Positions 5,036 to 61,315 of a DNA stretch of 64,000 bases are shown one piece after another. A program made the position numbers and the translations under genes. The notes under the pieces are model-generated. The model saw only the letters and a program-made list of their open reading frames with translations. It was not told where the DNA came from and did no database searches. Source of the stretch: a virus; IMG/VR virus record IMGVR_UViG_3300029037_000169; one strand, given 5' to 3'. Every line of letters starts with the position of its first letter. The stretch's first letter is position 1.

Positions 5036-5491
5036 TTAAGCAGAATCTTTCTCTCCTTGCCGGCTTCCGGACCTCTCGTCTCTCTCTTGCTTCAACGACT
5101 CGGCCAACAGGCCTATGAGCTTCTCGATATTCCGGCTGTTCCTCTCGTTCGCCTCCGCGTTTTGCTTGCCTTGCGCCGTTAGGTCATGTATGATATCTAG
5201 CAGTTCCCTTGGATTAAAGCCGTCACCTATTTCTTCCGGGATATCAACTGATCGTGCGGGTGGAACGTCAGAGGTTAGCATATCACCAACACCTGTAAGA
5301 AGCCAAACTTTATTATAATGAGGATATACAGATATTATTTTATCAGCAATCTCTTCAGATATTTTCTTAATCTTTCCTTTTTGAAGGTCATATATTTGAG
5401 TAGGTACAACCCCAACACTTTTCGCAAATGTTGCTGCCTTCAGACCTTCTCTATCAAGAATAGAACTAATTATTTCTGATGTTATTCTCAT
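5036..5491 (-). CDS. HTH DNA-binding protein, phage repressor-like (CI-like), divergent from cro-like gene region
   Basis: N-terminal HTH LKAATFAKSVGVVPTQIYDLQKG; minus strand with AT-rich promoter region 5492-5817. Confidence 0.55.
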   Translation of the reverse strand: MRITSEIISSILDREGLKAATFAKSVGVVPTQIYDLQKGKIKKISEEIADKIISVYPHYNKVWLLTGVGDMLTSDVPPARSVDIPEEIGDGFNPRELLDIIHDLTAQGKQNAEANERNSRNIEKLIGLLAESLKQERDERSGSRQGEKDSA

Positions 5492-5817
5492 TCTACTTAA
5501 TTTTATTGTATAGCAAAAAACTATATATATTTATTCCTATATCAAGTTACTAAAACGAACCCCGCAAATCAATATAAAAACATTGAAACACAAATAAATA
5601 AGATCAAATGTCTTACTTGCAAAATCTACTAGACATACATTTTTACATAATATCCATAAACATCAAAAGTTAAAAAAACCTTTTATACAGTATTTTACTC
5701 TACAAGTGTTTGATCGTATAGTAAAATACTATATATTTGCATCATCATTCAATCACGCACAAAGATACGATAAAGATTGAAATAACGAAATGGCATAAAC
5801 ATGCCAAAATAATATAA

Positions 5818-5891
5818 GGCCCTTTAGCTCAGCGGAACAGAGCGACGGTTTCCTAAACCGCAGGTCCCGGGTTTGAGTCCCGGAAGGGCCA
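5818..5891 (+). tRNA. tRNA-Arg (anticodon CCT), phage-encoded
   Basis: Cloverleaf: acceptor GGCCCTT/AAGGGCC, D arm GCTC..GAGC, anticodon loop TTCCTAA, T arm CCGGG-TTTGAGT-CCCGG. Confidence 0.75.
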
Positions 5892-6288
5892 CTAAAAAAG
5901 AGTTCTTTGACTTATTGAATAAAATCCTTACCCCCATAAGAGGATATACGTAAGAGATATAGGTATGGTGGTAAGGTTATGATAGTCGAAGATACCGGAA
6001 GGGATGATGATCCCCGCTCCCGATGTAGTTTGATCGGTTCCGATGTTGGAGTCTACATATTTAATAATGTATAACAGTACGATCCCATTCGGGTATCCTT
6101 GCGGTGGATGGAGAAGAAGACCGTATCGTACTAAATAATACGACTTTTCCTACGAGTCGTATCTAAGATATAGTAGGAGGTTAATACGGCCAAAAGTATG
6201 ACAGATTGGACAGACAATCATAAGATGACGACAGATCGGAAAGACGATCAAGCCGAGAACTCCGGCTTTGCATGAGTTGATTAAGACT

Positions 6289-6346
6289 CCCCCACCCGTC
6301 TATGATTCGGGTTCTCGAAACCGTTGGAGGTTGTGGGGGGGAGCTA
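6289..6346 (+). repeat. structured ~55-bp direct repeat, copy 1 (CCCCCACCCGTCTATGATTCGGGTTCTCGAAACCGTTGGAGGTTGTGGGGGGGAGCTA)
   Basis: Near-identical copy at 7326..7379; outer 7-bp stem CCCCCAC/GTGGGGG; lies ~25 nt upstream of an ATG. Confidence 0.7.
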
Positions 6347-6372
6347 TTATAAATAAAAAGGAAATGTAAATC

Positions 6373-6570
6373 ATGCAGAAAAAAGTGGAAAGCAAAAGAA
6401 AGATCAGAGAAATGAAAGTATCTGAGAAACTATCCTTCCCTATAGAAGTGTTGGAGACGGTTAGAAATAACGTGTCTCTGTTAAACGCTAAGTATTATAG
6501 AGAGGGAAGGAAATGGTCTTCCGTATCAAACAAGGAAGAAGGGATCGTTTATGTCAGACGCTTAACATGA
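6373..6570 (+). CDS. hypothetical protein
   Basis: ORF with AAAGGA RBS-like sequence downstream of repeat copy 1. Confidence 0.35.
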   Translation: MQKKVESKRKIREMKVSEKLSFPIEVLETVRNNVSLLNAKYYREGRKWSSVSNKEEGIVYVRRLT

Positions 6571-6576
6571 CAGATC

Positions 6577-6966
6577 ATGGAAAGGGTATTCACCGAGTTA
6601 ACCGAGGAATGTGATTACACGGCCCAGTATTACGCCGTAGGGTTCGAGAAAAAAGAGATAGCCGAGAAAAAGTGCAGGTCGTTACATACGATCATAAACC
6701 AGCTAAGGACGGCTTTCGAGATACTAGGCGTAAGGAACGGTAGGGAGTTGGCCATAAAACTATGTGAGAGACTATGCGATATAAAAGCTAACGTGGATAT
6801 ACAGCAGATGGTTCATTCCGCCGTGGCGTGCGTATTGCTGCTTGTCCTTTGCGCCGACTCACATCTGGAAATGAGAAGGACAAGGCAAAGATGTCGGTCC
6901 GTGGCTAAAATAGAGATATCCTCTAGGGCTTTCAGGGGCTGTAGAGGAAAGAATATAACATTATAA
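6577..6966 (+). CDS. LuxR/GerE-like HTH regulator candidate
   Basis: FEKKEIAEKKCRSLHTIINQLRTAFEILGVRNGRELAIKL resembles LuxR C-terminal HTH. Confidence 0.4.
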   Translation: MERVFTELTEECDYTAQYYAVGFEKKEIAEKKCRSLHTIINQLRTAFEILGVRNGRELAIKLCERLCDIKANVDIQQMVHSAVACVLLLVLCADSHLEMRRTRQRCRSVAKIEISSRAFRGCRGKNITL

Positions 6967-6977
6967 TAAATAACGAT

Positions 6978-7259
6978 ATGGAGAATATAGCGGATTTACC
7001 GGCGACACAAGTAACGGCGGGGCAGCTGGCCGACTTGATCATAGAGAGGCTTGGGATTAACAAGGAGGCCAAGGATAAACCTAAATACGTAAGGGGCCTT
7101 GAGTCATTGGCTAAAACGCTCCAAGTAAGCCCGGCGACAATCGCCAGATACAAAAAGAGAGGAGTGTTTGGTGACGCTATAAAACAAAACGGGAAATACA
7201 TCTTGGTGGATATCCAACTCGCCCAAGAGCGTTTCCTTGGCAAAGGCAAGAAGAAATAA
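6978..7259 (+). CDS. excisionase/AlpA-like HTH (HTH_17) DNA-binding protein
   Basis: LAKTLQVSPATIARYKKRG HTH motif typical of Xis-like proteins. Confidence 0.5.
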   Translation: MENIADLPATQVTAGQLADLIIERLGINKEAKDKPKYVRGLESLAKTLQVSPATIARYKKRGVFGDAIKQNGKYILVDIQLAQERFLGKGKKK

Positions 7260-7325
7260 CATCCCGGATGTCCCTAGGCCTTATCGCACCTGTGGCGCTA
7301 GGGGTGTCCGGACCTACTTATAAGG

Positions 7326-7379
7326 CCCCTACCCGTCTACGATTCGGGTTCGAAACCGTTGGAGGTTGTGGGGGAGCTA
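7326..7379 (+). repeat. structured ~55-bp direct repeat, copy 2
   Basis: CCCCTACCCGTCTACGATTCGGGTTCGAAACCGTTGGAGGTTGTGGGGGAGCTA; T/C change keeps stem via G-U; preceded by further inverted repeats (GGCCTTAT/ATAAGGCC, CCCTAG/CTAGGG). Confidence 0.7.
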
Positions 7380-7402
7380 ACATTAAATATATAAAGGATA
7401 TG

Positions 7403-7582
7403 GGCATTACAATTAAAAAAATCGTGGAATCATTTATAGACACTATAAAATCGATCCGCACATCATCTGAAAATCATGATCAAAAGACGAACGGATCGAC
7501 CAAAAGTTTCTTTAGAAAAGATAACGAAGACGTGGCTACTTCTCTTTTTGCCTTAAAAACCTATCAATCTTCTGGAGATTGA
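7403..7582 (+). CDS. hypothetical small protein (longer ORF 7268.. reads through the repeat and is probably artefactual)
   Basis: ATG ~25 nt downstream of repeat copy 2 with AAAGGA. Confidence 0.3.
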   Translation, partial: GITIKKIVESFIDTIKSIRTSSENHDQKTNGSTKSFFRKDNEDVATSLFALKTYQSSGD

Positions 7583-7814
7583 AGTTCGCCACGAAGCCGC
7601 AATTATCACAAGTCAATGGGAATAAACGAAAATAATCATTTTCCCCCTCCTTGAAGACAAGGCTTTGTCCTTCTTTGGTAGCAGAAAGCAACTCGAATTC
7701 ATTTTCGGGAAAGGTAAAACCAGAAGTCGAACCGCAAATAGGACAACGGAACTTACCCGCTTTCTTTAAAATCTCGGACGTTATCTCGTCCAAACGTTCA
7801 TCTGTTAATTTCAT
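7536..7814 (-). CDS. small zinc-ribbon protein (CxxC...CxxC)
   Basis: RCPICG ... CDNCG; start taken at internal Met MKLTDERL. Confidence 0.4.
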   Translation of the reverse strand: MKLTDERLDEITSEILKKAGKFRCPICGSTSGFTFPENEFELLSATKEGQSLVFKEGENDYFRLFPLTCDNCGFVANFNLQKIDRFLRQKEK

Positions 7815-8614: not shown

Positions 8615-9250
8615 ATGAAGACATTCGAGGAATTAAAGAAGGATCTGCTTGAACGGGCTAAAAAACATAACGCTTGTCAAGATGGATACAGGATGGGGTT
8701 AAACGCAAAAAGCAAACAAGATTTGCTGAAAGCAATAACCAATAATTGGTATTGGGTCTTGAGTGCATCCAAGATGATTGACGCAAATTACCTAGAAAAT
8801 AACTTTTCTGAAGAGGAATTAGCCGAAGCCGGTATTTACACAAGAAAAGAACACACCTCTAATGCTAAATCATTTGCTTGCGGCTCTGCCACGGTCGAGG
8901 CTTACGGCTCTGCCACGGTCGAGGCTTACGGCTCTGCCACGGTCGAGGCTTACGACTCTGCCACGGTCAAGGCTTACAACTCTGCCAAGGTCGAGGCTTA
9001 CGGCTCTGCCACGGTCAAGGCTTACGACTCTGCCACGGTCGAGGCTTACGACTCTGCCACGGTCGAGGCTTGCGACTCTGCCAAGGTCGAGGCTTACGGC
9101 TCTGCCACGGTCAAGGCTTACGATAACTCATATGTTGAGGATTGCACAGGGAACATAAATACAGTTTCCGATCATGGAATAATCAAAGATTACTACAATC
9201 ATAAGATATATATAAAGAAAGGAAAATTCGAGATTATTGAGATCGAATAA
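8615..9250 (+). CDS. protein with eleven tandem 8-aa repeats (G/D-S-A-T/K-V-E/K-A-Y)
   Basis: 24-bp DNA unit GGCTCTGCCACGGTCGAGGCTTAC x11 in frame; globular N-terminal 90 aa. Confidence 0.55.
   Translation: MKTFEELKKDLLERAKKHNACQDGYRMGLNAKSKQDLLKAITNNWYWVLSASKMIDANYLENNFSEEELAEAGIYTRKEHTSNAKSFACGSATVEAYGSATVEAYGSATVEAYDSATVKAYNSAKVEAYGSATVKAYDSATVEAYDSATVEACDSAKVEAYGSATVKAYDNSYVEDCTGNINTVSDHGIIKDYYNHKIYIKKGKFEIIEIE
8881..9144 (+). repeat. 24-bp tandem repeat array (x11) inside CDS 8615..9250
   Basis: Direct reading of sequence; all three frames open across it. Confidence 0.9.
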
Positions 9251-9637: not shown

Positions 9638-10300
9638 ATGGACAAATCAGAAGAGATTGACAAATTAGCCATAGCGTTGGCCAAGTTCCAAGGGTCGCTA
9701 GAGCAACCAAGCCTCAATTCAGAGGTCAAGGTAAAGACTAAAACTGGACTAGAGTACAAGTTTAAGTACGCGGACCTATCCGAATGCAAAAGGGCGGCGA
9801 AACAACCATTAGCCGATAACGAGCTTGCTGTATGTCAGCTAATAGAGGATGATTACTCTATCCGGACCATACTGCTTCATTCCTCCGGCCAATGGATATC
9901 GTCCAAGGTAAGGATGCCATCCAATACGGCGGACGCTCAATCCATAGGATCGGCCATCACGTACGCCAAGAGATACGCCTTTTGCGCCATCCTTGGCATC
10001 GTGGCCGACGATGACGAGGACGCTAACATAGCGAACGGTAATACCGCCCAAAAGGAGCTGCCTAAAAAAACGGCAAGCTCAAACCAGAAGAAAGAGCTTA
10101 CGAGAGATCATATAAACAACGAGAGCGCCATGAAATCCATATCGGAGTGGATATACAAGAACGAGAAGAAGGCCAAGGAATCCAACCAGCCCTTCTCCGT
10201 GGAGAGCCTTATAAACAAGGCTTACATCGCCGGAAAGGTTGAGATGGAATCCATTATCGAGATATACAACAACTATAAAATAAACAACAACCTGTCATGA
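9638..10300 (+). CDS. erf: Erf-family single-strand annealing protein (recombinase)
   Basis: ITYAKRYAFCAILGIVADDDED matches P22 Erf core SSYARKYCLNGLFGIDD. Confidence 0.75.
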   Translation: MDKSEEIDKLAIALAKFQGSLEQPSLNSEVKVKTKTGLEYKFKYADLSECKRAAKQPLADNELAVCQLIEDDYSIRTILLHSSGQWISSKVRMPSNTADAQSIGSAITYAKRYAFCAILGIVADDDEDANIANGNTAQKELPKKTASSNQKKELTRDHINNESAMKSISEWIYKNEKKAKESNQPFSVESLINKAYIAGKVEMESIIEIYNNYKINNNLS

Positions 10301-13784: not shown

Positions 13785-13861
13785 GGTATCGTGGGTCTAA
13801 TGGTAAGACCACTCCGCCAAAAGACGGAGAGATGCAGATTCGAATCCTGCCGATACCACCA
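13785..13861 (+). tRNA. tRNA-like gene with encoded CCA and non-canonical 8-nt anticodon loop lacking U33
   Basis: Perfect 7-bp acceptor GGTATCG/CGATACC+A+CCA, D arm GGTC-TAATGGTAA-GACC, T loop TTCGAAT, but anticodon stem CTCCG/CGGAG encloses CCAAAAGA. Confidence 0.55.
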
Positions 13862-15732: not shown

Positions 15733-15936
15733 ATGAGTACATTTATGAAATTCATATCAGAATCTAAGCCTTGTGTAGCATTAGAGGTAAGCCCATTAAG
15801 CGAATCTGATGAGTGCATAAGTTTTTTCATATCTGAATATTCGGACTACATGACCAAAAGCGTAGAAATAAGTAAGGATGATATTAGAAGATTGATAAAG
15901 TTCCTAAAAGAGGAATTGGAAAATGCCGACAACTGA
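15733..15936 (+). CDS. hypothetical small acidic protein
   Basis: ORF only. Confidence 0.3.
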   Translation: MSTFMKFISESKPCVALEVSPLSESDECISFFISEYSDYMTKSVEISKDDIRRLIKFLKEELENADN

Positions 15937-16828
15937 TATGGATAAAGGATTTATCATGTTATCCCGTAAATTATTTTCTCACAGAATATGGAAAGCATCC
16001 CGGACTTTTAGCGAGTGCGAAGCGTGGATAGACTTAATACAGTCAGCACGATTTGAGGCAACGCAGCTTAAGGCTAGTATCGGAGGTAGAGAAATAACAT
16101 ACGGAAGAGGACAATATCCAGCATCCATAAGTTTTCTTTCCAAAAAATGGAAATGGGACTCAGAGAAAAAGGTCCGAAATTTCTTGGACATGCTTAAAAG
16201 GGACGGAATGATAACAACAGACGCATCCCAAGGCATGAATGTGATAACTCTATGCAATTATGATTTATACAACCCTATAAATATAGACAAGGGCGAGGAT
16301 AAGGGCAAGGGTAATGGCATAGACATAGAACAAGAAATCAAGGACTTAAAGCTTTCTTTGGGCGAGCTAAGGGCAAGCCTAGGGGCAAGTGACGAAAATA
16401 AAGGGCAAGGTAAGGGCAAGAATAATAATAAAGATAATAATAATATACCCCCTACCCCCAAATCGGGAGGTGCCGTCACTTCCGTTCCGGACACGGGCGA
16501 TAACCCTGAGACAGAAAAGGAGAAAACATGGAAAGATGATTTCAGCATCTATTTGGATTTAGTCCGTAGCGCATATAAGAGCATATGCGACGATCCAAAG
16601 ATCATGGAGACTCAACAATCCTATTATCCCGGCGTAAACATAAAACTATCCCTAGAGAAGGCTTGCACAAATTTCTGGGCAACAGACGCAGGATGGAAGC
16701 ACAAGAAAAAAAGCAGGGCCAAGGAGATTGACATGAGAATGACATTGATTAACGCAATAGATAAAAACAAGGTTTATTATGGCAAGAACGAACACCGCAC
16801 AGATCTCACATACATCGTCCCCGATTGA
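15923..16828 (+). CDS. putative replication initiation / helicase-loading protein
   Basis: Sits immediately upstream of and overlapping dnaB; low-complexity K/G/N linker. Confidence 0.4.
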   Translation: MPTTDMDKGFIMLSRKLFSHRIWKASRTFSECEAWIDLIQSARFEATQLKASIGGREITYGRGQYPASISFLSKKWKWDSEKKVRNFLDMLKRDGMITTDASQGMNVITLCNYDLYNPINIDKGEDKGKGNGIDIEQEIKDLKLSLGELRASLGASDENKGQGKGKNNNKDNNNIPPTPKSGGAVTSVPDTGDNPETEKEKTWKDDFSIYLDLVRSAYKSICDDPKIMETQQSYYPGVNIKLSLEKACTNFWATDAGWKHKKKSRAKEIDMRMTLINAIDKNKVYYGKNEHRTDLTYIVPD

Positions 16829-19187
16829 CGGCAGGCTGCCTCCCCAAGCCAAGGAGATCGAGCAGATAATACTCGGGGCTTGCCTCATAGAGAGCGACGC
16901 TTTCGAGAAAATCGCCTCGGAGCTATCGGAGGTCGATTTCTACGACAAGAGGAACCAATCGGTATTCAAGGCCATATCCGGGCTATACAAGGAGAGAAAG
17001 CCCATAGACATGATGACGGTCACGCAAGCGATGCTGTCATCCGGGGAGCTTGAGAGTATTGGGGGGCCGATATACATAGCTTCCCTTACCTCCAAGATCG
17101 GGTCTTCGGCCCATATACAGGATCATGCCATGATCGTCAAGGAGCGGTCCATACAGAGGAAGGGGCTGGCTATCGCCAACGACCTTGAGAACGCCATCTA
17201 TTCCAACGAGGATATAGGGGACGTTCTTCACAAGGCCATAAACGGCTCAGAGACCCTCATGGAGGAACTTATCGGCAAGTCTAATGGCGAGCATATATCC
17301 AAGGCCCTTAAAGGCTCCATGGACGGTTTATACAAGCGTGTGGAGATGGCGAGGAAAAACATCCGATCCGGTGTTGACACGGGTCTTCACGACCTGAACA
17401 AGATCACGAACGGATGGCAGCCGGGAAACTTGGTGATAATAGCGGCTAGGCCCTCCATGGGAAAGGCGCTAAGGATGGATGCCAAGGTCTTGACACCTTC
17501 CGGATGGAAACTGAACAAGGATCTGGCGATAGGCGACCAAGTTTGCTCCGTAGACGGGACGGAATCACGTGTGACCGGCATATTCCCGCAAGGGTATGTC
17601 AAGACATACATGGTCGAGTTCTCGGACGGTCGCAAGATCGAATGCTGCGGAAGTCACCTATGGAGCGTAATATCTTCCAAGTTCAATTCCAAGGCCGAAA
17701 GGGTAGTATCTACCTTGGAGCTTATGGACTTGATAAGCAAGGAAAGATATTCCGGCAGAATAAGCATTCCTCGTTTCTCCGGGATATTCGGGGACAGGAA
17801 AGATTTCGTGATCCCACCATATCTCATGGGAGTCTTGTTAGGGGATGGGATCTTGGGCAAAGGGGTTAGCTGGTGCAAGCCAGATAAGTTTATCGCAGAC
17901 AAGATCCGAGGTATGGTTGACTACGATGTTATCGCCTCAGATGATCGATACCTAATAACCAACACGGAGAACAGGAAGGCCAATAAGTACTTGGCAGAGT
18001 TGAAGAACCTAGGATTGCTCAACGCCCATTCTTACGAGAAGTTCATTCCGGACATGTACATTGACACATGTAGGGATCAAAGAGTAGAACTGTTGAACGG
18101 TCTTCTTGACACTGATGGGGATATAGACAAGAATGGGGCTATATGTTACAACACCACGAGTGTCAAATTGGCGAGAGGCGTACAAACGCTTTGCTGGTCT
18201 TTGGGATATAAATGTTCCTTGAGAGAAAGACGCTCATTCCTTTATGGCGAGCGGAAAAGGAACAGTTTCAGGCTCGTGATCGTAGCGGACAACCCTAGGG
18301 AATGCTTCACGCTCCCAAGGAAATTCGACAGGGTGAGGATGGACCGGAGAAACAAGCCTTTGACCGTGATGTCCGTGACACCGACCAACCGCAGGGTTGA
18401 ATGCCAGTGCATATCGGTATCGCATGAGAAGGCCTTGTACATAACGGATGATTACATAGTCACCCACAATACCGCCGTGATGCTTCACTTGGCCAAATCG
18501 GCGGCAAAATCCAACACGCCCGTGGCTATATTCTCGCTTGAAATGTCCGACATAAGCTTGGCCAACAGGTTGATCCTATCCGAGTGCGACGTAGATCCGG
18601 AAAGGTTCAAGTCCGGGTATATGACAAACGAGGAGATCAAAAAGGTAGAGACGGCAGTCAACGAGCTTTGGAGGCTCCCGATCTATGTCGATGACAACCC
18701 GTGCGTTACGATGGACTACATCCGCTCACGATGCAAGATACTGAAGAAGCAAGGCAAGTGCGGGATCATCATGGCCGACTATCTCCAATTGGCGGAGAGC
18801 GGGGAACGGGAAGGAAACCGTGAGCGGGAGGTAGCCAAGATGTCAAGGACCGCCAAGATCACGGCGAAGGAGTTAAAGGTTCCCTTCTTGCTCTTATCCC
18901 AATTGAACAGGGGAAACGAGGCCAGACCGGACAAGAAACCCCTCCTATCAGATCTTAGGGAATCCGGGGCTATCGAACAAGACGCTGATATCGTAATGTT
19001 CATCCATAGGCCGGAGTATTACAAGATCGAGGTAAAGGACAAGAACGGGAACGTCGAACGCAACTATGGGGAGTTGATCGTGGCCAAAAATAGAGATGGG
19101 GCTACTGGATTAGTAAAATTCAAGCATAATGACGGTATGACCAAGTTCTACGATTACGGGAGTTATGACAAGGACATGCCATTTTAA
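16779..19187 (+). CDS. dnaB: replicative DNA helicase DnaB containing a LAGLIDADG-type intein in the P-loop
   Basis: DnaB N-domain; Walker A split ARPSMGK|[ALRMDAKVLTP...YIVTHN]|TAVMLHLA; LLGDGILGKG and LLDTDGDIDKNG endonuclease motifs; RecA-like C-terminal domain. Confidence 0.85.
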   Translation: MARTNTAQISHTSSPIDGRLPPQAKEIEQIILGACLIESDAFEKIASELSEVDFYDKRNQSVFKAISGLYKERKPIDMMTVTQAMLSSGELESIGGPIYIASLTSKIGSSAHIQDHAMIVKERSIQRKGLAIANDLENAIYSNEDIGDVLHKAINGSETLMEELIGKSNGEHISKALKGSMDGLYKRVEMARKNIRSGVDTGLHDLNKITNGWQPGNLVIIAARPSMGKALRMDAKVLTPSGWKLNKDLAIGDQVCSVDGTESRVTGIFPQGYVKTYMVEFSDGRKIECCGSHLWSVISSKFNSKAERVVSTLELMDLISKERYSGRISIPRFSGIFGDRKDFVIPPYLMGVLLGDGILGKGVSWCKPDKFIADKIRGMVDYDVIASDDRYLITNTENRKANKYLAELKNLGLLNAHSYEKFIPDMYIDTCRDQRVELLNGLLDTDGDIDKNGAICYNTTSVKLARGVQTLCWSLGYKCSLRERRSFLYGERKRNSFRLVIVADNPRECFTLPRKFDRVRMDRRNKPLTVMSVTPTNRRVECQCISVSHEKALYITDDYIVTHNTAVMLHLAKSAAKSNTPVAIFSLEMSDISLANRLILSECDVDPERFKSGYMTNEEIKKVETAVNELWRLPIYVDDNPCVTMDYIRSRCKILKKQGKCGIIMADYLQLAESGEREGNREREVAKMSRTAKITAKELKVPFLLLSQLNRGNEARPDKKPLLSDLRESGAIEQDADIVMFIHRPEYYKIEVKDKNGNVERNYGELIVAKNRDGATGLVKFKHNDGMTKFYDYGSYDKDMPF

Positions 19188-30634: not shown

Positions 30635-31027
30635 TTATAAAACCACTATGCTCTCCTCCTCTCTCGCCGCCTCCCACTCGGCGAAATCGCTATCCACACG
30701 GTCTTTCAACGCCTTCCTCTCGTTAAGGAACGTCTTATAAGACTCCACGTATGACAAGTCCAATATGCCTAGCTGGGCGGCGTTGTAGTCGTTCAGCTTC
30801 TTTTGCTCCACGTCCTTGTCCCATAGGGCGTTGATACAGGCCTCCAATATCTTGTTGGCAGTTAACGTGGCCCATATCCTGACCTCGTTGTAACTATAGG
30901 AGATCACGGGGGCCATATCGTCACCCATCTCCCTTGTCTCCTCTCTAACGTCCCACCGGTACAGGTAGGAACCGTCACCGTCCCGCTCTATTTTAGGCGG
31001 CATTGTGTCGCTCCATGATCGCTTCAT
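30635..31027 (-). CDS. hypothetical protein downstream of RT
   Basis: ORF overlapping RT start. Confidence 0.4.
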   Translation of the reverse strand: MKRSWSDTMPPKIERDGDGSYLYRWDVREETREMGDDMAPVISYSYNEVRIWATLTANKILEACINALWDKDVEQKKLNDYNAAQLGILDLSYVESYKTFLNERKALKDRVDSDFAEWEAAREEESIVVL

Positions 31028-32054
31028 AAAACTCTGGTTTTAAAATTTTCTTAGCTAAATGCTTGCTATCGCTATCATATATCCAGCCCAGCCAACCGGC
31101 TAGACCTGCCTTGTATTCCGTTAAGGATATATTCGGGACTTTATTCAATCTAGCCGCCGCACGACATAGATTTTGCTTAGTCCTCTTCCTTATCCGTATA
31201 TGCTCCTTATAGAAAACGAACCCCACGAAATCTATACCACGGCCGCTTTTATCCGATCTTCTCTCAGCGATCTTAAATATCTGGTAATTCCCTTTCAGCT
31301 CCAACTTCAACACGGTCAACCTATCGATAAGCCACGGAAGCAATACGTTTCTCAAGAAACACTTATCATGATGGAAAAAAGTCATGTCATCCGCATATCT
31401 GATATAATGCTTTATATCTATAATCTCCTTTATCTCGTGATCCAGATAGGCGAGATAAAGATTCGCAAGATATTGGCTAAGATAATTCCCGATCGGAACG
31501 CCGGGAGCGGAATCGATGATCTCATCCAACAACATAAGCAAGCGATCGTCCTTGATCTTCTTCCGAGCTATGCCTTTCAACACTTCATGGTCTATTGACG
31601 GATAGAATTTGCGGATATCAACCTTGAGGCAATAGGCGGATTCACGATCGGACAAAGCCCGTCTTGTCCTTTTATACGCCTCCGTTATCCCTCTTCCCTT
31701 GATACATGATGTCGTGTCAGAAGTGAATATGGAAACCCATATAGGTTCCATGACGTTCATTATAGCATGATGCAATATCCTGTCCGGGTAATAAGGAAGC
31801 TTGAATATGACCCTTTCTTTAGGCTCATAGATGATATCAGTCCGGTACTTGGAAGTCTTGAACGTGCCATCCTGCAAAGACTTTAGCAAACGGCTGAGAT
31901 TACCTTCTTTGTCCTTGTCAAACAACCTTATGCCGTAGGAATCCTTCTTCCCCCTCCGAGCCTTGATGTCTGCCAGTATCAAGTTATCCATATTCGCTAT
32001 CTTATCAAATAAATTTCCTATTCTCTTCATTGTCATCAATTTGCTTTTTATCAT
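30993..32054 (-). CDS. diversity-generating retroelement (DGR) reverse transcriptase
   Basis: YADD catalytic box (IRYADDMTFF); DGR-specific IGNYLSQ in place of QGxxxSP; ~350 aa; adjacent TR. Confidence 0.85.
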   Translation of the reverse strand: MIKSKLMTMKRIGNLFDKIANMDNLILADIKARRGKKDSYGIRLFDKDKEGNLSRLLKSLQDGTFKTSKYRTDIIYEPKERVIFKLPYYPDRILHHAIMNVMEPIWVSIFTSDTTSCIKGRGITEAYKRTRRALSDRESAYCLKVDIRKFYPSIDHEVLKGIARKKIKDDRLLMLLDEIIDSAPGVPIGNYLSQYLANLYLAYLDHEIKEIIDIKHYIRYADDMTFFHHDKCFLRNVLLPWLIDRLTVLKLELKGNYQIFKIAERRSDKSGRGIDFVGFVFYKEHIRIRKRTKQNLCRAAARLNKVPNISLTEYKAGLAGWLGWIYDSDSKHLAKKILKPEFYEAIMERHNAA

Positions 32055-32161
32055 AGGGAGTCTTCGGTTCCCCTACCAACACCCTTTATATGGGGAGACT
32101 TTTTTCGCCAAGAGGCGAGGCCACCATCCCTGTTTGTTCCCTAAATATCTTTCCCCTTTCT

Positions 32162-56940: not shown

Positions 56941-58413
56941 TTAATGATCATCATCACCATCACCGCTATTCTCTTCCTCTATTTCTTTAAGTACCTCATC
57001 CACCCTTTCCGCATTACCGGCAAATAAAATACCTTCTCTCCTACTCCAGATCTTTCCGTTTATCGCATTAGTAGCCGTATAAACCCTCTCATCTATATCA
57101 TCGATCATATACGGAACCAGATCAACATCTATGTCTATTGTTTGTGACGCTTTCATAAATTGACTGGGATTGATATCTCCCATTGCTGATACTAAAAAAT
57201 TAACCCTTCTCTGGAAAAACTCCCCTATTATCTCCGCATGGTTCGAAACCGCCATATGAGCTCCCATAAAGATATATCTAAAAGCCTTTCCTGATACGGC
57301 ATTGCCTATACCTTTCAACTCTTGGGGAGAAATACGAGGTGTATTGGTCATATCATAGGCTCTATTAGTCAGTCCCTCAAGCTCTAGACGAACAGTGTCC
57401 GGGACTTGATTCCATGTTAAATATTGAGCGTTAGCCCCCGGTCCAGTAAGTTGAATCATACGATTCTTCCTCTTCCCAGAGAAGTTTTCTATGTCTCCGA
57501 ACAACATCAAGTAAGGGAAGAAATGATAGTCTATACAATCGGCGTAATTAGATAAAACCTTCTCTATTCTCACACGCAATGGCTTGATCTTATGGCAGTA
57601 ATTTTCAGAACGATAGCAATACATTACCGGAAGTTTTGAGAATAGATGTCTAAAGGATGATTCCCTCTTCTCTTGCCATGCATCACTATTCTCCCATTGA
57701 TATACATGAGTGGATGTTATCGTCTGGAAACATATTATCTCATTATCATCCAAATCCTTTTTTTTATACTCTCTTGAGAAAGCGACCAAATCGTTTGAAT
57801 CATCAAAAAATGGATATAATTTATCTCCTCTGAAAGGAGACCATATAACACTCCTCAATTTATAAGAAGGAAATACGTTCCCTGAAAAAACCATCTTGAT
57901 CTTATTCCTTAGCTTAGTCCAAAATGAATCGTCTTCCACGACATACCAATATTCCGCACATTCTTGTTCCGACAGCCAAGATCGCACCTCCCGTTTGTTT
58001 TGATACTTGATCTTGTTTTTCTTCAAGGTCTGCTGAATAGCCGCAAAAAGTGCCTTTTCCGCATCGTTAGAAGGGGCACAGTCCATTTTAGGCTCTATTC
58101 CTACGGTAAACGCCGTTTGAATATTTGTTATATCCTGCTCAAGAGGAATAGATATACGATTACAAGGCTCAGTATGTTTCTTGGCTGGAATTTCCATATA
58201 TTCACCGGTGTCGTGATTATAAGCTTTTCCCTCTTTCTCATCCACGATTTCTATATCCGGGTATTTCTCTTTATCCGTTATAATCTCATGCAGATCTGGA
58301 TTCCAGTCGGCCATATTCTCTCTATTGTCGGGGAGAGGGGTTCTTCTCCCTTTCTTTAAATACTCGATCTTCTGATCTATATCTTCTAACGCTAAAATCT
58401 CTTCAAGTGTCAT
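56941..58413 (-). CDS. portal protein candidate
   Basis: 490 aa immediately downstream of large terminase; acidic C-terminus. Confidence 0.55.
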   Translation of the reverse strand: MTLEEILALEDIDQKIEYLKKGRRTPLPDNRENMADWNPDLHEIITDKEKYPDIEIVDEKEGKAYNHDTGEYMEIPAKKHTEPCNRISIPLEQDITNIQTAFTVGIEPKMDCAPSNDAEKALFAAIQQTLKKNKIKYQNKREVRSWLSEQECAEYWYVVEDDSFWTKLRNKIKMVFSGNVFPSYKLRSVIWSPFRGDKLYPFFDDSNDLVAFSREYKKKDLDDNEIICFQTITSTHVYQWENSDAWQEKRESSFRHLFSKLPVMYCYRSENYCHKIKPLRVRIEKVLSNYADCIDYHFFPYLMLFGDIENFSGKRKNRMIQLTGPGANAQYLTWNQVPDTVRLELEGLTNRAYDMTNTPRISPQELKGIGNAVSGKAFRYIFMGAHMAVSNHAEIIGEFFQRRVNFLVSAMGDINPSQFMKASQTIDIDVDLVPYMIDDIDERVYTATNAINGKIWSRREGILFAGNAERVDEVLKEIEEENSGDGDDDH

Positions 58414-58424
58414 AATTTTACGTT

Positions 58425-59690
58425 TTAATGTCCAAATATTCCGGAATAATCCCTAGGCTTTAAAACACGCCCCAAAAGACATCCCAACACATAGTACCTA
58501 ATTCCGTCCATGAGATGATTGTAATCATCTATCGGCTCATTGATACGATTTCCATCCTTGTCCTTATCCCATACATAGTTGCGAAGCTCCTTTATGAGAT
58601 TATAAGAATGCTCCGTGACAAATAGCTCCATATCCTTAATCTTATCAATCCCAGCCTTAATAGATCCCGGATACTTATCTACTGGGTAAATATTGACCCC
58701 CCTGTTCTTTATCTCTTGGATAAGACGTGGATCTTGCGAGTCGGCAAATACTTTCAATGAATAAGGGCGGAGCTTTTTAGCTATGGCAGATGAAAGCATA
58801 TCCGTCTCATAGAAAAGCTCATCCACATACAACCTATTATCAATGATTCCGCATCTGACCGCAGCGGATGGATCGTTGGAGAAACCAAAGTCTTGCCCAA
58901 TAGCCACTTTCTTACACCACTGAGGAAAATCTTTAACGATACCCCATTTCTTAAATACTGCACCTTCCGCAACATCAGCCCATCGACCGATAACCACATG
59001 AGCATATTTATCTGGATTATACTCTTTCATTCGTCTCACCTCTCCAAGAAATTGGGGCGATAAGTTATCAATATTATCCAAATAGGTCGTATGTATATGT
59101 AATACATTTGGATGAGTAGATATCTGCACCTGCACACCGTCTATCTCCACCAGCTTATGAGTATTCTCAATATACTTCTTATAGATAAAATGATTGGAAT
59201 CTGTGGGATTCATTACTATGATAATCCGGTTCTGAATCCCCTTTTGGCGTATGGACAACATTATTTTGTCGAAGTCGGATTCTGAAGTCCATTCCTCCGC
59301 CTCATCACACACAAAGGTCGTAAGCCCTTTAATTGATTTGAGCCGTGCCGTCTGATTTCCGGACGATGTTTTTATTCCACGAAAGAGGATTTTGCTATCT
59401 GAGTAATTATTGATGATATCCTTATTAGTTATATCAAAAAACTCATCCGTTCCCTCCAACTCAATCTTCTCCTGCAACTCCGGAATCACTGACATGGAAG
59501 CGGCAACCATCGTATAACGGCAAAATAAGATTATATGCCCAGACTCAAAAGATAGTCGCTCTATAAAAGTAGAGGCATTAAAACTTTTTCCACTGCCCCT
59601 ACCTCCCGTTATAAGAATGATAAATTTATCAGCATCCTCATACAAGGGCTTGTAAGGTAATTGGGGTTTTATGTTAAATACCGGGACCAT
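58425..59690 (-). CDS. terL: terminase large subunit
   Basis: Walker A ILITGGRGSGKSF; Walker B/coupling FVCDEAEEW; C-terminal nuclease-like region. Confidence 0.8.
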   Translation of the reverse strand: MVPVFNIKPQLPYKPLYEDADKFIILITGGRGSGKSFNASTFIERLSFESGHIILFCRYTMVAASMSVIPELQEKIELEGTDEFFDITNKDIINNYSDSKILFRGIKTSSGNQTARLKSIKGLTTFVCDEAEEWTSESDFDKIMLSIRQKGIQNRIIIVMNPTDSNHFIYKKYIENTHKLVEIDGVQVQISTHPNVLHIHTTYLDNIDNLSPQFLGEVRRMKEYNPDKYAHVVIGRWADVAEGAVFKKWGIVKDFPQWCKKVAIGQDFGFSNDPSAAVRCGIIDNRLYVDELFYETDMLSSAIAKKLRPYSLKVFADSQDPRLIQEIKNRGVNIYPVDKYPGSIKAGIDKIKDMELFVTEHSYNLIKELRNYVWDKDKDGNRINEPIDDYNHLMDGIRYYVLGCLLGRVLKPRDYSGIFGH

Positions 59691-60676: not shown

Positions 60677-60918
60677 ATTTTCGTAACTTTAAGTTACGCA
60701 CCTGTCCCGCAAATATAATGAATAATATACATGACGGCTACACTGTATCCATAAAATATGTTATTGATCATAATTGGGAGTTGAGAAGGAAAAACGTTAT
60801 ATTTGTCACGATGGAGAATTAAGACATCAAAAATCCTATAAAAAAACGCCTTTTACGTGTATTTTTACGTGTAACAACAAAAATAGCCTTGACAATCAGT
60901 AAATTACCAAGGCTATTG

Positions 60919-60933
60919 TGGAGATGGAGAGAT
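60919..60933. repeat. right prophage junction (att core) = 3' terminal 15 nt of ssrA
   Basis: Identical to 865..879. Confidence 0.65.
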
Positions 60934-61315
60934 TCGAACTCTCGTCCAAACGAGGAATTAATTTGCTTTCTACATGTTTATCTTCGCCTTCATTGTCGGG
61001 GAAGAGCAAGACCGAAGCCACCCACTCATCCCTTATCCTCTAAAGTTTCGCCTGAGACCCGAGGCTTATCTCAAACTATCTCCGATATTGCTGCACCACC
61101 TGATCGGAACGCTTCGGAGCCACAGCATCCGGGTGATGTCACGTCCCCGCAACTTTTGCAGGGATTAAGCTTGAATCTACTATACTTCGATTAAGCAGCG
61201 AGAGCGTAATTATTTTCGCCAGTTAATTGTTCGTTGTCTGAGATTTAAGTGCAAGCCAACCACGCACTACATGCTTACAAACCACTTCTACCCGCTGTCA
61301 AAACCGGTCATCCCC
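60919..61315 (-). ncRNA. ssrA: tmRNA (ssrA) with tag peptide GENNYALAA
   Basis: 5' GGGGATGACCGGTTTTGACAGCGGG; tag ORF GGCGAAAATAATTACGCTCTCGCTGCTTAA (61191..61220, minus); 3' tRNA-like GAGAGTTCGAATCTCTCCATCTCCA. Confidence 0.85.

Follow-up and report, generated by a model that had tools for sequence, protein, structure and literature searches.

We identified a short structured RNA, termed the Y element, in a 64,000-nucleotide stretch of viral DNA (IMG/VR record IMGVR_UViG_3300029037_000169, hereafter the window), which represents a Bacteroidales prophage. The Y element is a real structured RNA of about 53 nt that forms a three-way junction composed of a closing stem, hairpin A and hairpin B. 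Two copies are found in the window, both on the + strand (6287-6341 and 7324-7376) and with none further, and a 1,037-bp three-gene unit is present or absent among related phages exactly at the element. With somewhat less than even confidence, we favor a reading in which the Y element acts as a portable RNA leader, or "punctuation" mark, that would protect and insulate the downstream message and would also be the place where crossovers exchange cassettes. Taken by themselves, the RNA fold and the role as a module junction are far more secure than this statement as a whole.

Two copies of the Y element

The presence of two near-identical structured repeats, as claimed in the original prediction, was borne out by repeat search, shuffled controls and covariance model alike. 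A direct-repeat search matched 6289-6314 with 7326-7351 at 92% and 6315-6339 with 7350-7374 at 100%. Each half-pattern of the element, with up to 3 mismatches allowed, yielded two matches in the 64 kb compared with none expected in shuffled sequence. The covariance model returned only 6287-6341 (75.5 bits) and 7324-7376 (73.7 bits), with E values of about 1e-16, and scored 10.7 bits on the opposite strand. In copy 1, the closing stem comprises 9 bp (6287-6295/6333-6341, CTCCCCCAC/GTGGGGGGG, including one U-G pair), followed by hairpin A (6296-6298/6308-6310, loop TCTATGATT), the junction (6311-6318, GTTCTCGA) and hairpin B (6319-6322/6329-6332, loop GTTGGA). The corresponding parts of copy 2 are a closing stem of 7 bp (7326-7332/7368-7374, CCCCTAC/GTGGGGG), hairpin A (7333-7335/7345-7347, loop TCTACGATT), the junction (7348-7353) and hairpin B (7354-7357/7364-7367). 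An outer stem of 7 bp had been predicted for each copy, which holds for copy 2 while the stem of copy 1 is longer. The copies are distinguished by C/T in the outer stem, T/C in a loop, TC inserted into the junction and two additional G. The outer-stem difference faces a G, giving C-G in one copy and U-G in the other, and is thus compensated as originally proposed. Start codons follow 31 nt after copy 1 (ATG 6373) and 23 nt after copy 2 (ATG 7400), where about 25 nt had been predicted. The AAAGGA sequence that had been taken for a ribosome-binding site directly abuts the copy-2 ATG and is therefore unlikely to act as a Shine-Dalgarno sequence. In the phylum to which these hosts belong, mRNA leaders function independently of Shine-Dalgarno pairing.

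Compensatory changes reveal a three-way junction on the gene strand

Across the family, the closing stem is GC-rich and 7-9 bp long, hairpin A consists of a CCG/CGG stem with an 8-9 nt loop carrying AUU at its end, the junction varies between 5 and 10 nt, and hairpin B, of 4 bp with a 6-nt loop, lies directly against the closing stem's 3' strand. All three helices are kept in divergent phage relatives through compensatory and G-U changes. In an alignment of 51 distinct sequences, 96.3% of cells were paired and double changes were seen at 9 of 16 pairs; this level was reached by none of 500 shuffles, and slid controls paired at 46-60%. Aligning with MAFFT from sequence only gave 97.7% paired cells and again revealed pairs changed on both sides, located in the closing stem and hairpin B. 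Four divergent types folded individually each gave the Y shape. The fold is assigned to the gene strand because of its G-U pairs and the strand-specific model score (75 vs 10.7 bits). Paired helices with compensatory changes on this strand argue against plain duplicated promoter DNA, an outcome that the original prediction had held open. Variation is mostly confined to loop A (TCTATGATT vs TTATCATT) and the junction, and conserved loop sequences comprise the AUU with which loop A ends and GUUNNA in loop B. The fold energy of single copies was not significant (z -0.7 to -1.2). A kissing helix between loops A and B is pairable in 97% of cells but shows no double compensation, and the L118 type has C-C at this place; a contact between the two loops is possible.

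Several other interpretations of the sequence were considered and set aside. The rod-like minimum-energy fold of the main sequence has inner pairs that break in divergent members. A coding N-terminal extension, i.e. translation of an ORF at 7268-7582 through copy 2, is ruled out by 1-nt and 2-nt indels and by compensatory pairs among copies. When compared by eye, no hammerhead core, HDV-like core, anticodon loop, T-loop or tmRNA tRNA-like domain was conserved across types. An Rfam search, proposed earlier as a check, identified no family matching the Y element. With Rfam 15, whose families include tRNA, C4 antisense RNA, hammerhead, twister, pistol, hatchet and HDV-like ribozymes, riboswitches and phage motifs, the whole window gave nothing on the Y element at gathering thresholds. 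Inputs of 2.6 kb, 161 nt and 181 nt searched at E values up to 10 gave chance-level matches only, e.g. RSV_PBS at 15.7 bits on the wrong strand.

The Y element marks junctions between exchangeable modules

The optional cassette between the two copies (6373-7259, + strand) contains three genes. ORF65 (6373-6570) matches phrog_21219. ORF129 (6577-6966) had been described as LuxR-like, of which weak matches to helix-turn-helix (HTH) domains of the LuxR/RcsB type remain; all are below threshold (RcsB HTH, E about 0.006-0.1; Phage_antitermQ, 16.9 bits vs a cut-off of 26). ORF93 (6978-7259), previously called Xis-like, is assigned to the HTH family DUF3853 (E 8.6e-11) and additionally shows weak excisionase/MerR-type HTH matches. 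No recombinase or transposase domain was detected in the cassette ORFs, which encode only small HTH-type proteins.

Absence of the 1-kb unit precisely at the repeats, which had been named as a check, was observed in single-copy relatives. Loci L045 and L014 and phage BF1-TP2 carry one copy with matching flanks and no cassette. L045 shares the left flank and the copy-1 variant with the window and then continues into another gene, and L014, which has a different left flank, carries the leader and right flank of copy 2 (ORF60) directly after its single Y element. Conversely, a second Y element follows the cassette at every ORF65-ORF129-ORF93 locus with enough sequence. Loop A of hairpin A usually differs between the two flanking copies, and in L069 this cassette lies between a type III and a main-type element, brackets that differ in sequence and share the fold. 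The proposal that the copies are terminal repeats of a small nested element thus stands with respect to the exact indel (one copy when empty, two when filled) but not with respect to its nature: because the L069 brackets differ in sequence, loop A usually differs and the cassette lacks a recombinase, the copies are not transposon ends. We conclude that they are functional leader modules doubling as recombination linkers.

Over 128 instances, 15 left-flank clusters and 23 right-flank clusters occur in 59 combinations, and flank similarity ends at the edges of the Y element. That two copies bound the 1,037-bp unit would be explained by homologous recombination within the Y element, the only conserved sequence among variable neighbours. 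Variants with a C-A mismatch look like chimeras, as would arise from crossover inside the element.

The cassette ends in a 17-bp hairpin (7264-7311, + strand) with a 13-nt loop (UUAUCGCACCUGU), followed by the linker CUACUUAUAA. Both loop and linker are invariant, and there is no U-tract. Ten of the 17 pairs are compensated between two lineages, and the three G-U pairs exist on the + strand only. This hairpin is probably a second functional RNA element, and with its 17 bp it could be an RNase III-type site. The nested inverted repeats that had been noted before copy 2 are in part accounted for by it: CCCTAG/CTAGGG lies within this single hairpin, whereas the GGCCTTAT/ATAAGGCC pairing is lost in relatives.

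Promoter, leader and spacing

Only one full match to the Bacteroides promoter consensus, which consists of TTTG (-33) and TAnnTTTG (-7) about 19-21 nt apart, exists on the + strand between 3.5 and 12 kb. This candidate for the early rightward promoter (5709-5739, TTTG-19 nt-TATATTTG) overlaps inverted repeats (5684-5703/5716-5735) and is divergent from a repressor-like gene (5036-5491, - strand, with PHROG matches). It is followed at the head of the early transcript by a tRNA-Arg(CCT) gene (5818-5892, + strand; 63 bits with the Rfam tRNA model and also called by ARAGORN) and by a non-coding leader of about 390 nt (5893-6286, + strand) that contains no + strand ORF of at least 34 aa and parts of which are shared with L008, L140 and L246 in modular fashion. 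Copy 1, ORF65, ORF129, ORF93, the cassette-terminal hairpin, copy 2 and ORF60 (7400-7582, the next early gene) then follow in this order. As one host-type consensus promoter was found, both copies appear to lie inside a single early rightward transcript. The original idea of a repeated cis-acting structured RNA in leader positions is therefore supported in structure, by covariation, and in position, mostly 20-31 nt before a start codon, but not in its assignment of the copies to consecutive transcription units.

Within the leader, a short hairpin (AAGCCG/CGGCTT, 6250-6268, + strand) ends 18 nt ahead of copy 1. A comparison of 6190-6286 with L140 showed that TATGACAGATTGGACAGACAATCA...GACGACA.A..CGGAAAGACG, preceded by GGAGG, is kept in nucleotides and not in reading frame (25 vs 9 codons); this stretch may represent a module of the leader RNA or else a short upstream ORF. 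Downstream of copy 1, a 31-nt AU-rich leader (6342-6372, + strand) is conserved in all ORF65 cassettes, which also keep an ATG-TAA start-stop mini-ORF (6364-6369) located 4 nt ahead of the ORF65 start. Copy 2 is followed by an AU-rich leader of 23 nt that directly precedes ORF60 (leader and gene together 7377-7582, + strand).

When ORFs of at least 25 codons are counted, 13 of 23 right-flank types have a start 20-24 nt past the base of the stem and 2 more have one at 29-31 nt; the genes behind this fixed spacing are many and unrelated. Types II and III show a spacing of about 23 nt, and in the Parabacteroides RefSeq annotation (PGAP) the next CDS begins 25 nt after the Y element. On the other side, nearly all left-flank types have a stable hairpin whose end lies 4-45 nt ahead of the Y element, with a short AU-rich linker in between. 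A common plan of repressor, HTH genes, one or more tRNAs, non-coding stretch, Y element and early genes is shared even by the distant L118, L140, L067 and L069. L246, a relative without a Y element, has a three-way junction of another kind, 45 nt long (CCCGGA...UCCGGG; about 9010-9060 in the reverse complement, minus-strand orientation) and 22 nt before the first ATG; this structure may be a functional analogue.

Divergent types and distribution

Pattern scans of IMG/VR recovered more than 110 contigs, most of which carry a near-invariant main type (closing stem CTCCCCCAC/GTGGGGGAG, hairpin A CCG/CGG, hairpin B AACC-GTTGGA-GGTT) besides several divergent types. The L118 and L140 types share hairpin A with the main type and have the closing stems CTCCCCGCC/GGCGGGGAG and CTCCCCTGC/GCAGGGGAG and the hairpins B AAGT-GTTGCA-ACTT and AATC-GTTAGA-GGTT, respectively. 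Element I of L067 combines the main-type hairpin B with the closing stem GGTCCGTC/GACGGGCC and a hairpin A of CGG/CCG, and L067 element II (type II) and L069 type III differ in sequence and have the same shape. Main-type copies number two per locus at most, with L067 and L069 each adding one divergent copy. Element I of L067 holds the slot that tRNA-Arg occupies in the window, L246 and others, and the motif AGAGTTCTTTGAC follows directly. In L118 (7790-7860, - strand), a 22-codon ORF (MKGRKLFVSLIITITKLHRSCS), which may encode a small membrane peptide, begins 29 nt after the element and ends in a terminator-like hairpin. At L008 (9870-9951, - strand) and seven similar loci, the 3' G-run of the Y element is fused to a tRNA-like T-arm and acceptor 3' end (…GGGGGTGCGAATTCCCCCGGCTACCA).

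Known relatives infect Bacteroides fragilis (phage BF1-TP2) and Parabacteroides distasonis, and BF1-TP2 is the sole GenBank phage with a Y element. Its gp79 gene (L001 3970-4284) is annotated as a hypothetical protein CDS that starts ahead of the Y element and runs across it; the ATG located 24 nt past the element is likely the true start. BF1-TP2 also has a full, odd tRNA-like gene with an AT-rich anticodon region (L001 5010-5085) that tRNA finders miss. The covariance model detected no Y element in 100 unrelated gut-phage loci. A scan of genome contigs gave a single chance match within a coding region of an unrelated metagenome-assembled genome, a protein-based search for relatives of L067 returned L067 itself only, and a metagenome scan for new hairpin-B variants yielded the L118 type and chance matches only. 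In the literature searched, no description of the Y element or of BF1-TP2 was found. We class the Y element as an RNA family not yet catalogued but of a familiar general type, the structured elements found in leaders or between cistrons of phage early transcripts; it is set apart by the Y fold and the double role as recombination linker.

A proposed punctuation RNA at the head of cassettes

In our favored reading, the Y element would be a portable cassette head, an intercistronic punctuation mark within the early transcript. Copy 1 closes the long tRNA-bearing non-coding leader, copy 2 comes after the terminal hairpin of the cassette, and the layout runs from upstream hairpin through short AU-rich linker, Y element and AU-rich leader (20-31 nt) to AUG. 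The linker could offer an endonuclease site. Bacteroidota lack RNase J, and their mRNA decay depends chiefly on two endonucleases, RNase Y and RNase E/G (PMC10234816). Cleavage by RNase Y or RNase E/G would leave the upstream RNA with a 3' hairpin and the downstream message with a tightly paired 5' structure that may hinder 5'-end-dependent decay. Further, the Y element may keep the ribosome-loading region unstructured regardless of upstream sequence, which would be useful for cassettes changing context. Finally, homologous recombination within the element would shuffle cassettes, and the Erf-like annealing protein encoded in the prophage (9638-10300) could use such short homology, judging from Rad52-like phage recombinases. 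An xrRNA-type block of a 5'-3' exonuclease was set aside in view of the missing RNase J (PMC10234816).

Known systems resemble parts of this proposal. Intercistronic processing sites and stabilizers include the T7 early RNase III sites, the ompA 5' stem-loop and hairpins of the pap and puf operons. As in these cases, structures are repeated between early genes, and a hairpin, an AU-rich linker and a second structure would suit endonucleolytic separation. They differ from the Y element in fold, in that cleavage of the latter is a prediction, and in that its host lacks RNase J and relies on RNase Y and RNase E/G. Helices of 7-9 bp and 4 bp are also too short for classical RNase III: a T7-type site spans about two helical turns, whereas the longest coaxial stack in the Y element is 9+4 bp. 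With respect to recombination, linkers of mosaic phages such as the lambdoid boundary sequences and the promoter-early stem-loop (PeSL) repeats of T4 are likewise short conserved sequences at junctions of interchangeable modules, and both recombinants and cassette indels break exactly at the Y element. In contrast to these linkers, the Y element is a covariation-supported RNA and not a promoter, and versions with different sequences and the same fold are interchangeable (L069, L067).

Several points weigh against a punctuation role. Cleavage and stabilization are predictions, and the conserved loops would not be needed for mere stability; their conservation suggests a tertiary contact or a specific partner. 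For some instances no ORF lies nearby (L067 element I before a non-coding motif, the 62-nt gap of L140 and the eight tRNA-like fusions), and the L118 type has terminator-like hairpins on both sides of the Y element. A gp79-like gene occurs without a Y element in L246, so the element is dispensable for expression. Leaders are also alike among several right-flank types and the spacing observations are consequently not all independent.

Alternative explanations

Processive antitermination, in which nascent Y RNA, with or without a factor, would alter RNA polymerase to read through downstream terminators into delayed-early genes, appears unlikely to us. HK022 putL and putR and the lambda nut sites are cis-acting antitermination signals in phage early operons, and the Y element similarly is a short structured RNA repeated in the early region of a temperate phage, past the immunity promoter and ahead of delayed-early genes. 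Its location between immunity/HTH genes and recombination/replication genes is where lambdoid phages place nutR and putR. Terminator-like structures are found downstream, both in the L118 type, ahead of the next long ORFs, and in the window after ORF60 (7649-7662), and the conserved loops could serve as contacts; the copy behind the cassette-terminal hairpin would then re-arm the polymerase. However, strong hairpins, some with U-tracts, sit upstream of the Y element and thus out of reach, the constant distance of about 22 nt between element and start codon would have no use, and both copies lie in one operon. The put sites are two open stem-loops without an enclosing stem, whereas covariation supports a closing stem around both hairpins of the Y element. 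A lambda nut site combines a boxA consensus with a boxB hairpin carrying a GNRA-like pentaloop, and neither a boxA-like sequence (at most 1 mismatch) nor a boxB-like hairpin was present in 5740-7420. An N-like or NusG-like gene is not consistently linked to the element. The conserved loops would also fit an operator for a trans-acting RNA-binding protein, encoded by phage or host, that sets the timing of translation of each cassette's first gene or represses it, as T4 RegA and RNA-phage coat proteins do at their translational operators. Sequence conservation of loops and closing pairs alongside covarying stems and a free junction length, as well as the constant place just upstream of the ribosome-loading region, would be expected of such an operator, and the invariant 13-nt loop of the cassette-terminal hairpin has UUAUC in common with a variant loop A. 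Still, no candidate protein covaries with the Y element, all flanking genes being variable, the stem base is at least 20 nt from the AUG and thus at the edge of the 30S footprint, and no ORF is near some instances. We consider an operator quite improbable.

The resemblance to tRNA raises the question of a surrogate whose closing stem on hairpin B would mimic an acceptor/T-arm minihelix that RNase P or another tRNA-processing enzyme cuts. The 7-bp core stem is continuous with the 3' hairpin, hairpin A is similar in size to a D-arm (3-4 bp stem, 8-9 nt loop), Y elements lie amid phage tRNA and tRNA-like genes, and L067 element I occupies the tRNA-Arg slot directly before AGAGTTCTTTGAC. This positional equivalence comes from one locus, however, and the Y element lacks a cloverleaf and an anticodon arm and appears to lack a conserved T-loop. 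ARAGORN and the Rfam tRNA model (RF00005) call the neighbouring tRNAs and not the Y element. Hairpin B further provides 4 bp and a 6-nt loop, giving 7+4 instead of 7+5 bp, and the T-loop-like GTTCGAA falls in the junction, the most variable part; we give this explanation little weight. Even less probable is a DNA-level site, in which the copies would be target-site duplications or else terminal or att-like repeats of a small cassette mobilized by attC-like site-specific recombination. The exact indel of the 1,037-bp unit, the weak Xis-like character of the ORF93 product and a folded imperfect palindrome recall such elements, and like integron attC sites the Y element is structured, strand-specific, bounds gene cassettes and is more conserved in structure than in sequence. 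Against this stand the L069 cassette with its unlike brackets, the loop A differences, the absence of a recombinase from the cassette, and single Y elements ahead of many unrelated genes. In addition, the element has a sense-strand leader position with G-U pairs within the covariation on the transcribed strand. No GTTRRRY or RYYYAAC core was found in or beside either copy, and neither arrays (at most two main-type copies per locus) nor an integron integrase were detected, the only integrase (982-2319) matching generic phage integrase families, with IntI-specific features not examined. We regard as equally improbable that the repeats are duplicated promoter DNA or a riboswitch or ribozyme, meaning a ligand-sensing or self-cleaving RNA. 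A sigma-70-like match (TTGATT-18-TATGAT) overlaps copy 1, but no Bacteroides sigma-A promoter (-33/-7 consensus) occurs in or beside either copy and the compensatory changes point to RNA pairing. Small three-way junctions are common in riboswitches and ribozymes alike; yet the would-be catalytic or ligand core, the junction, varies in length (5-10 nt) and sequence, Rfam gave no match of either class even at E values up to 10 on short inputs, and the downstream genes are unrelated in function.

As an extension of these ideas, the Y element might be a new RNA device with two roles, in which tRNA-surrogate punctuation protects the 5' ends of cassettes (or antitermination is re-armed) and the same sequence acts as a DNA recombination linker. 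We consider this doubtful. If true, it would constitute an RNA-structured functional analogue of integron attC, and the exchanged early cassettes may include anti-defence genes.

Further features of the prophage

The remaining landmarks of the prophage include a DnaD-like loader and primase/helicase (15923-19187) and the portal and terminase genes (56941-59690, - strand). A widespread 19-nt motif (AGAGTTCTTTGACTTATTG) is located at 5899-5917 (+ strand) inside the non-coding leader. It belongs to a motif of about 20 nt, AGAGTTCTTTGAC(A/T)TATTG, that is also found in L067 (10182-10197) and at more than 100 IMG/VR loci (L168-L271). Each locus has a single occurrence, in non-coding DNA, and the gut-phage contigs concerned are numerous and unrelated, among them contigs of 80-106 kb. 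The motif often trails a tRNA 3' end by 4-12 nt or precedes the next tRNA by 16-25 nt. It resembles a shared promoter-like or processing signal, without matching the Bacteroides -33/-7 consensus. A tRNA-like gene at 13785-13861 scores 47.5 bits with the Rfam tRNA model and is read by ARAGORN with a 4-nt anticodon (aaaa), and odd long tRNA-like genes likewise occur in L286, L274 and L008. A reverse transcriptase (30993-32054, - strand; phrog_1423, E 5.6e-103) adjoins an RT-17 RNA motif (41.7 bits; region 30993-32122), and together they probably represent a diversity-generating retroelement in the prophage. Within ORF 8615-9250 (phrog_15773), 24-nt tandem repeats at 8852-9000 encode 8-residue repeats of the GSATVEAY type. 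A tmRNA gene (60916-61315, - strand, tag GENNYALAA) is located just past the terminase end of the prophage and is likely the integration site.

Significance

In conclusion, the Y element would join the very few cis-acting RNAs known from phages of the Bacteroidales, the dominant gut phylum, as a covariation-supported family that Rfam 15 lacks. For annotation, its recognition corrects BF1-TP2, where the element is hidden within a hypothetical protein CDS. If the insulating or stabilizing role is true, the Y element would be a ready-made genetic part for expression in Bacteroides. As it marks hypervariable early-region boundaries, it further provides a handle for delimiting cassettes with accessory, possibly anti-defence genes, and gene shuffling in these phages can be attributed to recombination inside a 53-bp structured linker.

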